Program-made: the position numbers and the translations under genes
In this document: one piece after another, positions 2,690 to 5,814 of the stretch
How the letters are laid out: each line of letters opens with the position of its first letter
Numbering within the stretch: position 1 is the first letter of the stretch
Source of the DNA: Syntrophales bacterium
Lineage (GTDB): Bacteria > Desulfobacterota > Syntrophia > Syntrophales > UBA2210
Direction: 5' to 3'
Assembly: GCA_963662405.2 (NCBI GenBank)
Contig: CAXXKT010000001.1
Location: 384,001 to 448,000 of the forward strand
Length of the DNA: 64,000 bases
Notes under the pieces: model-generated
What the model saw: the letters and a program-made list of their open reading frames with translations, nothing else
Databases searched by the model: none
What the model was told of the DNA's origin: nothing

Positions 2690-3661
2690 ATGCTGAAATC
2701 CATACTGATCTCGGCTTTTATCTCAATAGCGATCTACTTCGGTATCGCCGCCGTCCTGATCCTGAGCGGCATCCCCGATCCGCCTGCGCAGGATGAAAGC
2801 AGCCTCCGATTCGAGGAACTGTTCATCGATTACGAAGGCCTGCCCGATCTGCACCGCTACGAGGCCAGAGACGGGGCGCAGTTATCGTACCGCCATTACC
2901 CTTCCGAATCGAACACGGTCCTGATCCTGTTGCACGGCGCGGGGTATCACAGTCGCTACCTGATGCCCCTGGCCCAATTCATCAGCTCCGAAGGCCTGGC
3001 GCATGTCTACACCCCCGATCTGCGCGGGCACGGACCGGCCCCCACGCGAAGGGGCGATATCGACTACATCGGGCAATACGAGGACGACATCGCCGACCTG
3101 ATTGCCGTGGTCCGGGATCGGCACCCCGATGCCGCACTGATCGTCGGTGGGCACTCCTCCGGCGGCGGGCTGACGATTCGCTTCGCGGGGAGTCGGTACG
3201 GGCGGCAGGCCGACGCCTATCTCCTCCTGACACCCTATCTCAAATACAACGCCCCCACCATGCGCCCCCAATCCGGGGGATGGGCGCAGCCCTTCACGAA
3301 ACGTATCATCGGTCTGGTGCTCCTCAATAATGTGGGAATCCGCTCGTTCAATCACCTGCCGGTCATTCGATTCAATACACCCGAAGAGGCAAGGGACGGG
3401 ACGGAGACCCTGTCGTACACCTACCGGCTCAATACGGCATATGCCCCGAAGAATTACAAAAAGGGACTCAAGGCCATTACACAACCCATCCTGGTCGTGG
3501 CCGGCACCGCCGACGAGGTGTCGTACGCCGATCAATTTGAACCCGTCATCTCACAATACACCGACGCGCAGGTGGAACTACTGGCCGGTGTCACGCACAT
3601 GGGGGTCGTGGTGGGAAGCGAAACCCGACCGGTGATAAAGAAATGGCTGGAAGAACGGTAA
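2690..3661 (+). CDS. Alpha/beta hydrolase (lysophospholipase-like)
   Basis: LHGAG, PDLRGHG, GHSSGG; AGGAGG RBS. Confidence 0.88.
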   Translation: MLKSILISAFISIAIYFGIAAVLILSGIPDPPAQDESSLRFEELFIDYEGLPDLHRYEARDGAQLSYRHYPSESNTVLILLHGAGYHSRYLMPLAQFISSEGLAHVYTPDLRGHGPAPTRRGDIDYIGQYEDDIADLIAVVRDRHPDAALIVGGHSSGGGLTIRFAGSRYGRQADAYLLLTPYLKYNAPTMRPQSGGWAQPFTKRIIGLVLLNNVGIRSFNHLPVIRFNTPEEARDGTETLSYTYRLNTAYAPKNYKKGLKAITQPILVVAGTADEVSYADQFEPVISQYTDAQVELLAGVTHMGVVVGSETRPVIKKWLEER

Positions 3662-3759
3662 AAAGAAAAAGTTCGTAACGGCTTGTAGTATCTTTAAATT
3701 GTGTACCAGACATTTTTTTGAAGCTTAATCAATGTGAAAGGAGGAATGATAAAAAGTCT

Positions 3760-3930
3760 TCATGAGCTGTGAATTGGGATACACTGTTTGAAACTTTATA
3801 GTTTTGGGCAGCAAGGCTACTGTTCGACATGTTTACTGGTCTTCGAGACCGCAAAGGAGAATGAAGAGCTGTAGCCGCAACATTCAATGATCTTCGAGAT
3901 CGAATAGGAGATTGGGACCAATTCACCTGA
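3760..3930 (+). ncRNA. Putative IS110 bridge RNA
   Basis: Outer stem GTGAATTGG (3769-3777) / CCAATTCAC (3918-3926); two similar hairpins (3838-3850, 3889-3901) flanked by segments matching the target and donor junctions. Confidence 0.75.
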
Positions 3931-3962
3931 CAGGCGCTGTCCAAGATGTGAGGAGGCGTTCT

Positions 3963-5075
3963 ATGAAGATGAGTATCGGGGTTGACCTTCACAAGACGCA
4001 GTTTACCGTTTGTTGTTTGAGTGAAGATCGGAGTGTTCAGGAGTCGGGCATCTACCCGACGACTGATCGAGGTTACCGGGCATTTATCATGAAGGTGTCC
4101 AACTGGAATGAGGGCGGTTACGAGGTCACGGCAGCGGTGGAATCAACAGGGAACACCCGACACTTTCGCAACCGGTTTTTGAAGGCGGGGATTGAGGTCA
4201 AGATAGTGAACACCTTGAAATTCAAGGTTGTAAATGAGTCAGTAAAAAAGACTGACAAGCATGATTCCCGCACATTGGCTGAGTTTCTTGAGAAAGATAT
4301 GCTTCCCGAGTCCATTCTTTGTTCGCAGGAAAGCGAGGACATTCGAAGGCTTCTCAAGTCACGTTCTGTTCTGGTGAAAGCTTTGGTATCCTTGAAAAAC
4401 CAGATACACGGTTTATTGCTTGGATATGGGATAGAGAGTCGGCGGGGACAGCTGCAGAGCAAAAAAGAAAGGCAGCGAATCCTTGACGGTCTCGCGGACC
4501 ATAGGAGTTACGGAAACGCTGCCCGAGCGGTAAAACCGCTTCTTGGTACAATAGACCAAATTGCATCCGAGGTCAAAGGACTTGAGCGCGTATTATCTGA
4601 TCTTGTTTCTGAAGACGAGGATGTTGCTCTGTTGCAAACGATTCCTGGCGTTGGAATAATAACAGCAGCGACGATTCGGGCTTATACCGATGACATCAAC
4701 CGATATGAGAGCGCCAAGCAGTATGCTGCTCATGCCGGTTTGGTACCATGGGTTCAAAACTCCAACAAGACCATTCGCCATGGTCATATTACCAAGCGAG
4801 GCCCCGTGGAACTGAGGACGGCTTTTGTGCAAATGGTAATGGGGATGCTACGGCTTCGGAATAAAACCGATGGATATTGGCTTATGTACAAATACAAAGC
4901 CATGAAAGAGAACAAGGGAACCGGGAAGAGCGTAATAGCGACGGCGCGAAAGATGAGCACTATTGTATATGCCATCTTGAAGAAGGGGGAGCCGTTTGAT
5001 CCATCGAAAATGCTGCCAGACCCGAAATATGTAGAGATGAGTAAGGTTGCGAGGTGTTATGCTTTGGCCGTTTAA
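3963..5075 (+). CDS. IS110 family transposase/recombinase
   Basis: IGVDLHK, VESTG, KTDKHDS (DEDD RuvC-like domain); LQTIPGVG, GLVP..QNS, GHITKRG; GAGGAGG RBS. Confidence 0.95.
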   Translation: MKMSIGVDLHKTQFTVCCLSEDRSVQESGIYPTTDRGYRAFIMKVSNWNEGGYEVTAAVESTGNTRHFRNRFLKAGIEVKIVNTLKFKVVNESVKKTDKHDSRTLAEFLEKDMLPESILCSQESEDIRRLLKSRSVLVKALVSLKNQIHGLLLGYGIESRRGQLQSKKERQRILDGLADHRSYGNAARAVKPLLGTIDQIASEVKGLERVLSDLVSEDEDVALLQTIPGVGIITAATIRAYTDDINRYESAKQYAAHAGLVPWVQNSNKTIRHGHITKRGPVELRTAFVQMVMGMLRLRNKTDGYWLMYKYKAMKENKGTGKSVIATARKMSTIVYAILKKGEPFDPSKMLPDPKYVEMSKVARCYALAV

Positions 5076-5139
5076 ATTTTAACCATGGGCCTGTTTGACA
5101 GGCTCTCCATGAATTGACTTTTTATAGGAGGAGGTATTG

Positions 5140-5814
5140 ATGGAACTGAAAGAAGCTATCACGAAGCGGATCAGCGTGAGGGGCTACAGACCGGATCCCG
5201 TTTCCCGGGAGGTCCTGACCGAGATCATTGAGACATCCCTTCGCGCGCCGTCCGCGATGAACGTCCAGCCCTGGGGGATCACCGTTCTTGCCGGCGGACC
5301 TCTGGACCGGTTGCGCGACACGAATATGGAGCTGCTGAAATCGGGCGCGGTTCCCGTTTCGGATTTCGGGCATGCGAAACCGTACGAAGGGGTCTACAAG
5401 GAACGCCAACGCACGCTGGGATTCCAATTATACGGCCTCCTCGGCATTGAGCGGAATGACAAGGCAAAACGAATGGAGTGGACCATGAAGGGGTTTCGGG
5501 GGTTCGACGCACCGGCCATGGTCATCCTGTCGGCCGACAAGGGCCTCGATACCCGGCTCGCCGGTTCCGATATGGGCGGACTCATTCAGACCATCTGTCT
5601 GGTGGCCCTCGAATACGGCCTGGGCACCTGCATCAACGGACAGGGCATCTTCTTCCCCGACGCCGTCAGGACGGTTGCCGGTATTCCGGAATCGCACAAC
5701 ATCTATATCTGTATCGCCATCGGCTATCCCGACTGGGACCATCCGGCGAACAGGCTGGTGAGCGACCGGGAGTCCATTGAAACCGTCACGCGCTGGGTCG
5801 GATTCGATCAATAG
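5140..5814 (+). CDS. Nitroreductase family protein
   Basis: KRISVRGY, APSAMNVQPW, IAIGYP. Confidence 0.92.
   Translation: MELKEAITKRISVRGYRPDPVSREVLTEIIETSLRAPSAMNVQPWGITVLAGGPLDRLRDTNMELLKSGAVPVSDFGHAKPYEGVYKERQRTLGFQLYGLLGIERNDKAKRMEWTMKGFRGFDAPAMVILSADKGLDTRLAGSDMGGLIQTICLVALEYGLGTCINGQGIFFPDAVRTVAGIPESHNIYICIAIGYPDWDHPANRLVSDRESIETVTRWVGFDQ

Follow-up and report, generated by a model that had tools for sequence, protein, structure and literature searches.

RNA-Guided Elements of the IS110 Family

Most of what is known of bridge recombinases comes from elements that home to repetitive extragenic palindromic (REP) sequences or to other mobile DNA. In IS621, each loop of the bridge RNA is described, in the accessible portions of PMC11208158 and PMC11208160, as running from a stem through a left guide (LTG), a stem-loop and a right guide (RTG), with the LTG pairing with the bottom strand; CT is given there as the conserved core of IS621 and its relatives (PMC11208158), and a junction promoter is described for IS110 elements (PMC11208160). 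As far as the available text of PMC11208160 and PMC11187229 goes, the IS110 group is distinguished from IS1111 in that its left end is long, the RNA being upstream of the gene, its right end is short, and its subterminal inverted repeats are short or lacking. The IS1111-type elements ISEc11, ISPa11 and IS4321 have a seekRNA, and in the IS1111 type the two target matches come in the opposite order to that of the IS110 type (Siddiquee 2024, PMC11187229, in its available text). The present analysis concerns an IS110-family element of 1.39 kb at positions 3744-5130 of a stretch of 64,000 nucleotides from a Syntrophales bacterium (assembly GCA_963662405.2, contig CAXXKT010000001.1, positions 384,001 to 448,000 of the forward strand), which is referred to here as the window and supplies all coordinates unless a contig or locus is named. 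Very probably, this element is active and its 219-nt left end encodes a bridge-type guide RNA that targets the Shine-Dalgarno (SD) sequence.

One other member of the family, IS900, reportedly targets translation initiation signals, as the title of a 1997 paper by Doran et al. has it. This element of Mycobacterium avium subsp. paratuberculosis is described in the accessible text of PMC8141618 as having the target motif CATGNNNNNNTCTCCTT and as rarely disrupting coding sequences. The motif is the reverse complement of AAGGAGA-N6-CATG, i.e., the same kind of target as that of the present element, the likeness being one of motifs. No guide-RNA reading of IS900 was found in the literature searched. 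The full-text search, which did not extend to supplementary target tables, returned no paper linking a bridge-RNA guide to the SD or the ribosome-binding site, and the accessible main text of Durrant 2024 (PMC11208160) does not mention the ribosome-binding site. The element of the window combines bridge-RNA recombination with an IS900-like choice of target, and what sets it apart is the co-orientation with the host gene, the regeneration of the SD and the mirrored order of the guides.

Insertion at Ribosome-Binding Sites

The element, as read from the sequence, lies between two junctions, and all of its features are on the forward strand. The left junction is caatgtgAAAGGAG|GAATGATAAAAAG (3737-3743|3744; in a longer form, caatgtgAAAGGAG|GAATGATAAAAAGTC), in which the left target AAAGG plus the AG core (3737-3743) is the host SD half upstream of the element and is equal to a guide of the putative RNA (3853-3859). 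The right junction is CTTTTTATAGGAG|GAGGTATTG-ATG, with the element terminus in a longer form being TTGACTTTTTATAGGAG|GAGGTATTG-ATG. Here, the left donor ATAGG plus AG (5124-5130), which is the same in all copies and relatives, brings a new AGGAG (5126-5130) at the original distance from the host start codon, and the right target (5131-5142) is made up of the host spacer GAGGTATTG and the ATG at 5140 of an open reading frame (ORF) for a nitroreductase (5140-5814; Pfam PF00881). One copy of the AG core is counted at the right end, and the window copy does not fix the exact crossover within the AGGAG common to both junctions. A preceding sequence-only reading of 3731-5142 had proposed an empty site at the SD of the nitroreductase gene, and this observation is confirmed, given that the excision of 3744-5130 yields exactly TGTGAAAGGAG-GAGGTATTG-ATG and that the right end restores AGGAGGAGG (5126-5134) before the nitroreductase ORF.

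The whole genome contains nine copies of the element, which are 100% identical, and in each of them the left flank is [A/T]AAGGAG (AAAGGAG in eight, TAAGGAG in one and ATAGGAG in none) and the right end is TATAGGAG, which restores AGGAG before the downstream DNA. An ATG is found 5-9 nt past the rebuilt AGGAG in eight of the nine copies, and seven of these ATGs open ORFs of 71-239 codons. The background is provided by the 1200 [AT]AAGGAG sites of the genome, 375 of which (31%) have an ATG at 4-11 nt, and 294 of which open an ORF of at least 60 codons. Against this 31%, the binomial probability of eight or more of nine copies with an ATG is about 6e-4 by our own arithmetic, and the 7-mer alone therefore does not explain the placement.

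The eighth ATG is not a gene start. At this copy (L003; G000 C1, 2112892-2114278) a gene on the opposite strand is interrupted, and the restored site has an opposite-strand ORF of 524 codons that spans the insertion point. The stretch to the left of the element is an MttB-family trimethylamine methyltransferase (PF06253, 3.6e-46), the gene being split in this genome, and the site is still AAAGGAG-N6-ATG despite its intragenic antisense position. The expectation that the insertions leave ORFs intact is thus borne out by most of the copies and breaks down at this one, which cuts the MttB-family gene.

In public contigs from the same sample, the element has a depth of about 41x, against 4-6x in its flanks, and the three DNA contig sets over the region contain no joint across an empty site and tell nothing of starts or ends. 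One contig in each of the runs X1 and X3 has only the last 41 nt of the element (window 5090-5130), in which 2 nt are deleted at 5107, and after them a flank that begins with TATGGGATG and is absent from the genome assembly. Left flanks outside the nine copies are also present in contigs of this sample, in which there may be a second strain or additional insertion sites.

A scan of species-representative genomes produced 77 loci. From one Spirochaetia chromosome 15 copies were fetched (74% protein identity), all of which lie at [A/T][T/A]AGGAG and have an ATG 5-7 nt past the rebuilt AGGAG, and among the genome-contig loci with a readable right flank, the ATG stands at 3-11 nt in 37 of 39. In a Lentisphaeria/Victivallales clade (34% identical), the left junction is [A/G]AAGGAG|ATGGTATGATAAAT, the right end is ATCATAGGAG, and 10 of the 11 copies have an ATG at 5-9 nt. 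Metagenome contigs, which were scanned for exact matches with the 17-nt right end, added at least 117 loci, and among the matches listed an ATG is found at 3-11 nt in 81 of the 110 unique right flanks of at least 14 nt. The metagenome loci with no recombinase upstream were kept in this count and left out of the guide tests, the loci for which were identified with the covariance model presented below.

The record titles of the relatives include Desulfobacterales, Spirochaetia, Treponema, Leptospira, Dysgonamonadaceae and Dehalococcoidales, among others, and the contigs of the clade are labelled Desulfobacterota, Spirochaetota, Bacteroidota, Chloroflexota and Lentisphaerota, i.e., at least five phyla by record titles. 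The comparison of flanks that had been suggested together with the empty site therefore gave the same arrangement of AGGAG, spacer and ATG in the host's own copies, in the close homologues and in the 34%-identical clade, and the contrary outcome, other insertions with no enrichment at SD sequences, did not occur.

Structure and Guides of the Putative RNA

The bridge-RNA-like core of the non-coding left end, with two loops, is found at 3808-3940 (covariance model R1, 148 bits). The model was built from 42 distinct relatives, aligned over 133 nt of the sequence that precedes the recombinase gene, and it finds 58 such RNAs in 75 sources; for the alignment of 42, RNAalifold returned 21 consensus pairs, eight with compensatory changes. 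As in bridge RNAs and seekRNAs, there are two stem-loop modules with conserved structure, the first composed of an outer stem, an internal loop and an inner hairpin, and the second of an inner hairpin. Compensatory pairs occur in the inner hairpins of the two modules and in the outer stem of the target loop; for the donor loop, RNAalifold returned no outer stem in the 42 relatives.

In the target loop, the 5' strand (3828-3836; DNA CATGTTTAC) has an invariant CAU and a variable N6 (GUUUAC) and is a candidate guide for the spacer and ATG of the sense strand. It is followed by the inner hairpin (3837-3851, with compensatory pairs at columns 31/44 and 33/42) and by the target guide AAAGGAG (3853-3859), which is preceded by C, spells the SD and ends in the AG core; being of the same sense as the left flank, this guide would pair with the bottom strand. 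In the donor loop, CAUUC (3881-3885; with AA, 3881-3887) is complementary to GAATG, the right donor (RD) formed by the first bases of the element (3744-3748). The inner hairpin follows (3888-3902; columns 84/95 are GC in 22 and AU in 20, and columns 85/94 are UA in 20 and CG in 18), and then the donor guide AUAGGAG (3904-3910), which is preceded by A and is equal to the right end plus core (5124-5130). These are the four segments that the sequence-only reading had located in the RNA, with CATTC and ATAGGAG as their donor members in DNA letters, and its interpretation was right for three of them, which agree with the flanks or with the ends of the element.

The 7-nt target guide is equal to the left flank at all seven positions in 29 of 44 elements, and at six or more in 41 of 44. 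Over the three positions that vary, the guide matches the flank at 2.66, where permuted data give 1.94, and none of 10,000 permutations reaches the observed value; the guide variants TAAGGAG, TTAGGAG, GAAGGAG, CAAGGAG, AGAGGAG and CACAGAG each track their flanks. The donor guide is complementary to the first five bases of the element in 40 of 46 cases, above all 10,000 permutations, and compensatory donor pairs were found as CATAC/GTATG, CATGC/GCATG, CGTGC/GCACG and CACTC/GAGTG, while the second donor guide takes the form GAATAGGAG or GGATAGGAG in almost every one of the 58 RNAs of the alignment. Guides that covary with the target and donor DNA are thus present, as in bridge RNAs and seekRNAs, with weak support for the right target guide. 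Given that no permutation of 10,000 does as well as the target guide or the donor guide, it is the RNA that encodes the targeting of ribosome-binding sites, and the central proposal of an IS110 element programmed for these sites is supported by the covariation of AAAGGAG with the left flank across elements. A pairing, within the RNA, between CAUUC and the GAAUG that follows the donor guide was considered and rejected, as it shows no covariation, and L031 and L034 change CAUUC only (by eye).

Natural reprogramming is also found among the relatives. In L129, the guide CACAGAG is equal to the left flank CACAGAG, away from any SD, and in L059 the guide TTGAGAG accompanies the left flank TTTAGAG, which is not at a ribosome-binding site. 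As both loci lie off SD sites with guides of their own, it is the RNA, rather than the protein, that makes the SD the target. The junctions of these two loci have, at position -4, the base of the target on the left and that of the donor on the right, which places the crossover within the last three bases, GAG, and all of the guides end in AG, i.e., CT on the other strand. A subfamily (L095, L129, L165, L089, L101, L102, L196 and L197) has the guides CACGGAG/CACAGAG instead of the SD, and its right flanks share nnCAC[A/G]GAG in repeat-rich DNA with inverted CACNGAG...CTCNGTG; its sequences mark it as a case of natural retargeting away from ribosome-binding sites.

The Right Flank and the Rival Readings

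The covariation of the right flank was tested over 27 guide groups and 66 sites by permutation, with about ten registers tried. If the target loop were read like the donor loop, two unpaired bases would face the core and UGUUU(+CA) would pair with AAACA(TG) after the AG, so that the ideal target would be AAAGGAG-AAACATG, with a 4-nt spacer. This register, with AAACA directly after AG, is the one that the sequence-only reading had adopted, by direct analogy with the donor loop, in which CAUUC and then AA pair with GAATG right after AG, and it fits the 9-nt guide of IS621, the last two bases of which face the core (PMC11208158, accessible text). It is, however, highly improbable, as it obtains 1.271 of 4 against a null of 1.272 (p=0.50), with shifts by 1 and 3 also at the null. 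A 4-nt spacer occurs in four of the 118 listed ATG sites of relatives and metagenomes and in none of the eight of the host genome, where the right flanks have A at position 1 in three of nine and C at position 4 in one of nine. A signal is found in the register in which CAU+N6 faces N6+ATG, with 2.32 of 6 against 1.91 when left-anchored (p=0.008) and 2.49 of 6 against 1.99 when ATG-anchored (p=0.002). Registers shifted by 1-3 bases, which have the same composition, are at the null, and composition is therefore not the cause of this signal. The spacer predicted for the host genome is GTAAAC, with which the eight occupied ATG sites agree at 3.0 of 6 bases and the 282 other gene starts with [AT]AAGGAG at an average of 1.78 (p=0.002). 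Of 15 hexamers, the true guide scored best, and in L095, which has lost the SD target, the 5' strand is complementary to six contiguous bases of the right flank in the N6+ATG register. When wobble pairs were allowed in scoring the right flank, the first set, of 18 guide groups, gave no signal.

A number of observations weigh against a reading of the spacer and start codon by the RNA, or against the wider proposal. The match on the right side is weak, at about 2.5 of 6, with spacers that range from 5 to 9 nt, and the number of registers tried leaves p values of 0.002-0.008 only moderately convincing. The one perfect 16-mer of the genome, AAAGGAGGTAAACATG (AAAGGAG+GTAAAC+ATG; G000 C1, about 92406-92421), counts in favour of such a reading, as some 0.01-0.03 would be expected by our own estimate, and yet this site is unoccupied. 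It is the start of a 403-codon ORF downstream of a SpoU/TrmH-type methyltransferase-like ORF, and we take the 403-codon ORF, from its sequence and without a family search, to be PilC/GspF-like. The Spirochaetia genome has no perfect predicted 15-mer and only two sites with one mismatch. The ninth host copy, on C2, has no ATG nearby, as is the case at 29 of the 110 listed metagenome sites; the latter include the reprogrammed subfamily, loci with no recombinase upstream and chance 17-mer matches, and some may have GTG/TTG starts. A scan of 3600-5300 against Rfam 15 returned no relevant family, with a chance match to isrD at E=0.98. The CAU never varies and, in the predicted fold of the RNA, pairs with an AUG (3861-3863) that is likewise invariant, so that it may be a structural linker rather than a guide, and the Lentisphaeria clade, which mostly has AAU in its place, is nonetheless found at ATGs. 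The closing CAU/AUG pairs, being invariant, say nothing either way and were set aside as evidence. Spacer length was likewise dropped as a proof that CAU reads the ATG. In the Spirochaetia genome, TAGGAG-Nx-ATG sites with x of 5-8 number 33, 69, 35 and 22, against 16, 26, 36 and 19 in the controls, and with about 12 of the 69 being junctions of the element itself, the excess over the control still peaks at 6; the spacers of the host's own copies, at 5-9 nt, were set against a broad genome background.

One rival explanation is that the 7-nt guide alone selects the sites and that the gene-start excess comes from purifying selection, under which intragenic copies would be lost and copies that rebuild a ribosome-binding site tolerated, the 5' loop strand, CAU included, being structural. 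This explanation, which is unlikely on balance, draws on the internal pairing of the CAU, the weak N6 match, the variable spacers, the natural excess at a spacer of 6 and the 10 of 11 Lentisphaeria copies at ATGs with AAU, as well as on IS621, which has a 3-nt linker, C47-U49, before its 9-nt guide (PMC11208158, accessible text). It is countered by the register-specific covariation, which argues against a pure composition effect, by the better match to the guide of the occupied gene starts than of the 282 others with the same 7-mer, by the intragenic antisense copy that still has N6+ATG, and by the agreement between the 5' strand of L095 and its non-SD right flank. The sites might also be picked by the donor loop or by the protein itself through a half match, as AUAGGAG differs from the target guide by one base. 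In the Spirochaetia loci L013-L028, nine of the 15 left flanks are ATAGGAG, which agrees with the donor guide at 7/7 and with the target guide UUAGGAG at 6/7, and substrates that match half of the bridge RNA suffice for the excision and off-target insertion of IS621 (preprint 10.64898/2026.08.31.748434, in its accessible text). Tandem right ends (GACTTTTTATAGGAG) are present in L048 (2637-2690) and L093 (two matches 34 nt apart), and fit an adjacent insertion in which the element's own right end serves as a near-match to the target. Selection of this type is nevertheless improbable, because the bases of the left flank at the variable positions (A/T/G/C at -7 and A/T/G at -6) follow those of the target guide while the donor guide stays ATAGGAG, and because the host genome has eight AAAGGAG flanks and no ATAGGAG. 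Returning to the 5' loop strand, the chances that it contributes to the choice of site, ATG included, are about even, and if it does read DNA, the sequences lend modest support to N6+ATG as its register.

The Recombinase and the Ends of the Element

The recombinase gene (3963-5075, 370 aa) has the same orientation as the downstream host gene, and its product has the domain pair of the IS110 family, i.e., an N-terminal DEDD/RuvC-like domain (DEDD_Tnp_IS110, PF01548, 8.1e-19, residues 5-155) and a C-terminal Tnp domain (Transposase_20, PF02371, 3.2e-20, residues 222-302). Its sequence matches in the PDB are ISCro4 (9t56) and IS621 (8wt6), at E of about 1e-18, and the S of QNSNK in the query, a candidate for the catalytic serine of the Tnp domain, is aligned opposite the first S of ESGSS in ISCro4. 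The nine copies have no long terminal inverted repeats and no target duplication, and their insertion is orientation-specific around a short core, as is typical of the family; the only sequence repeated at the copies is the AGGAG common to target and donor.

The left end of 219 nt, with the putative RNA upstream of the gene, and the right end of 55 nt fit the IS110 group. On the other hand, the reversed order of the guides and a perfect subterminal inverted repeat of 10 nt point away from this group and toward IS1111, the arms of the repeat being ATAAAAAGTC (3749-3758) and its reverse complement GACTTTTTAT (5116-5125). Two candidate halves of a junction promoter were read by eye, an extended -10-like TGaTAAAAA (3747-3755), which is kept in relatives, and a -35-like TTGACT (5114-5119), within the TTGACTTTTTATAGGAG that is kept in relatives from several phyla; the joining of the ends in a circle puts TTGACT 17 nt from TGaTAAAAA. 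A terminator scan, which is weak evidence, found no terminator-like site between the recombinase stop at 5075 and position 5130.

Proposed Mechanism and Its Significance

By analogy with the rest of the family, the excision of the element to a circle would join TTGACT to TGaTAAAAA and so create a promoter reading into the guide RNA. This RNA would pair with both the donor and the target DNA, and the recombinase would exchange the strands, through serine-mediated chemistry, at the AG dinucleotide, which is CT, the usual core of the family, on the other strand. The right end also ends in AGGAG, so that the ATG of the downstream gene still has a ribosome-binding site before it at an unchanged distance, and as the target is strand-specific, the recombinase gene always has the same direction as the host gene. 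The CAU and the six variable bases would probably favour, to a small degree, sites with a matching spacer and with an ATG some 6 nt past the AGGAG, and this preference, together with selection against gene-disrupting copies, may result in the excess at real gene starts. Host transcripts would presumably read into the element, which lies in sense orientation just upstream of a start codon, and the downstream gene would depend on read-through, as the lack of a terminator-like site in 5075-5130 suggests.

The fullest form of this model, which falls slightly short of an even chance, is that the target loop reads the whole translation-initiation signal on both DNA strands, with AAAGGAG pairing with the antisense strand of the SD and CAU+N6 pairing with the sense strand of the spacer and start codon, so that working gene starts would be told from stray AGGAG. 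The guide layout would then be mirrored relative to IS621, with the recombinase and RNA antisense to the CT-core strand, and the element would have a near-universal target in bacteria with SD-led genes, with no need for reprogramming between hosts.

The guide of this element is aimed at one of the most widespread short motifs of bacteria, the complement of the 16S rRNA tail, and this offers a molecular explanation for the old observation that IS900 targets translation initiation signals. An SD target would help to explain the presence of one clade in contigs of five labelled phyla, and the element would have a built-in limit to the damage that it causes, as it brings a spare ribosome-binding site at the right spacing. 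Sense placement in 5' leaders would, in turn, let host promoters transcribe the element. For genome engineering, it is a natural example of a short, abundant and orientation-defined landing site combined with a mirrored guide layout.

Comparison with Described Systems

The element resembles IS621 and ISCro4 in a number of features described in the accessible text of PMC11208160 and PMC11208158, namely, the recombinase with DEDD/RuvC-like and Tnp domains, the long non-coding left end upstream of the gene with a short right end, the two loops (predicted in the present case), each with a guide, a stem-loop and a second guide, the covariation of the guides with target and donor, the core that is CT on one strand, and the -35 and -10 halves split between the ends (PMC11208160). 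It differs from them in its target, which is the SD and not REP elements, in its perfect 10-nt subterminal inverted repeat, and in the left arms of its target and donor, which are nearly identical (AAAGGAG and ATAGGAG), so that the insertion site is regenerated. The order of the guides is also mirrored relative to IS621, as the guide for the bottom strand is 3' of the stem-loop here and 5' in IS621 (PMC11208158, accessible text), and the 5'-strand guide here does not cover the core. The IS621 geometry would be recovered only if the element were read antisense to the recombinase gene, in which case the core would be CT, CAU+N6 would be a 9-nt left guide, with a donor-loop strand of 8 nt and thus lengths as in the available description of IS621, and AAAGGAG would be a 7-nt right guide covering the core.

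The IS1111-type elements with seekRNA share with the present element the RNA-guided, orientation-specific insertion into a short repeated host motif and the subterminal inverted repeats, and the opposite order of target matches in the two types may be the counterpart of the mirrored guide order found here. By the available text, however, their non-coding region is downstream of the transposase gene, whereas here it is upstream, and their targets are attC, Tn21 ends or REP sequences rather than ribosome-binding sites (PMC11187229). The transposase of IS900 would be antisense to the host gene if CATGNNNNNNTCTCCTT is given in transposase orientation, in contrast to the co-orientation of the present element, which also has a right end that restores the SD. 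The second ORF of IS900, hed, is said to use host signals (PMC8141618, accessible text), and no such ORF is proposed here.

Possible Derivatives and Neighbouring Features

At eleven metagenome loci (L105, L109, L124, L130, L132, L138, L172, L174, L185, L190 and L191), a recurrent ...gcgtAAAAAGTCAAtcgaaagttga...cttcTTGACTTTTTATAGGAG is found about 60 nt upstream of the 17-mer. These loci have no recombinase gene upstream, precede N5-7+ATG and contain both end motifs of the element inverted, and from this arrangement they look like a miniature non-autonomous derivative or a solo right end. In the Spirochaetia chromosome, five of the copies (L018, L019, L024, L025 and L028) directly follow a repeat that ends in ...gcatccatgc.ggaa.tttttatAGGAG.

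In the window, the ORF that ends at 3661, upstream of the element, encodes an alpha/beta hydrolase by profile search. The left junction itself forms AGGAGGA-ATG and an 8-codon ORF, MIKSLHEL* (3742-3773), in which the SD and the ATG stand too close together for a normal start.

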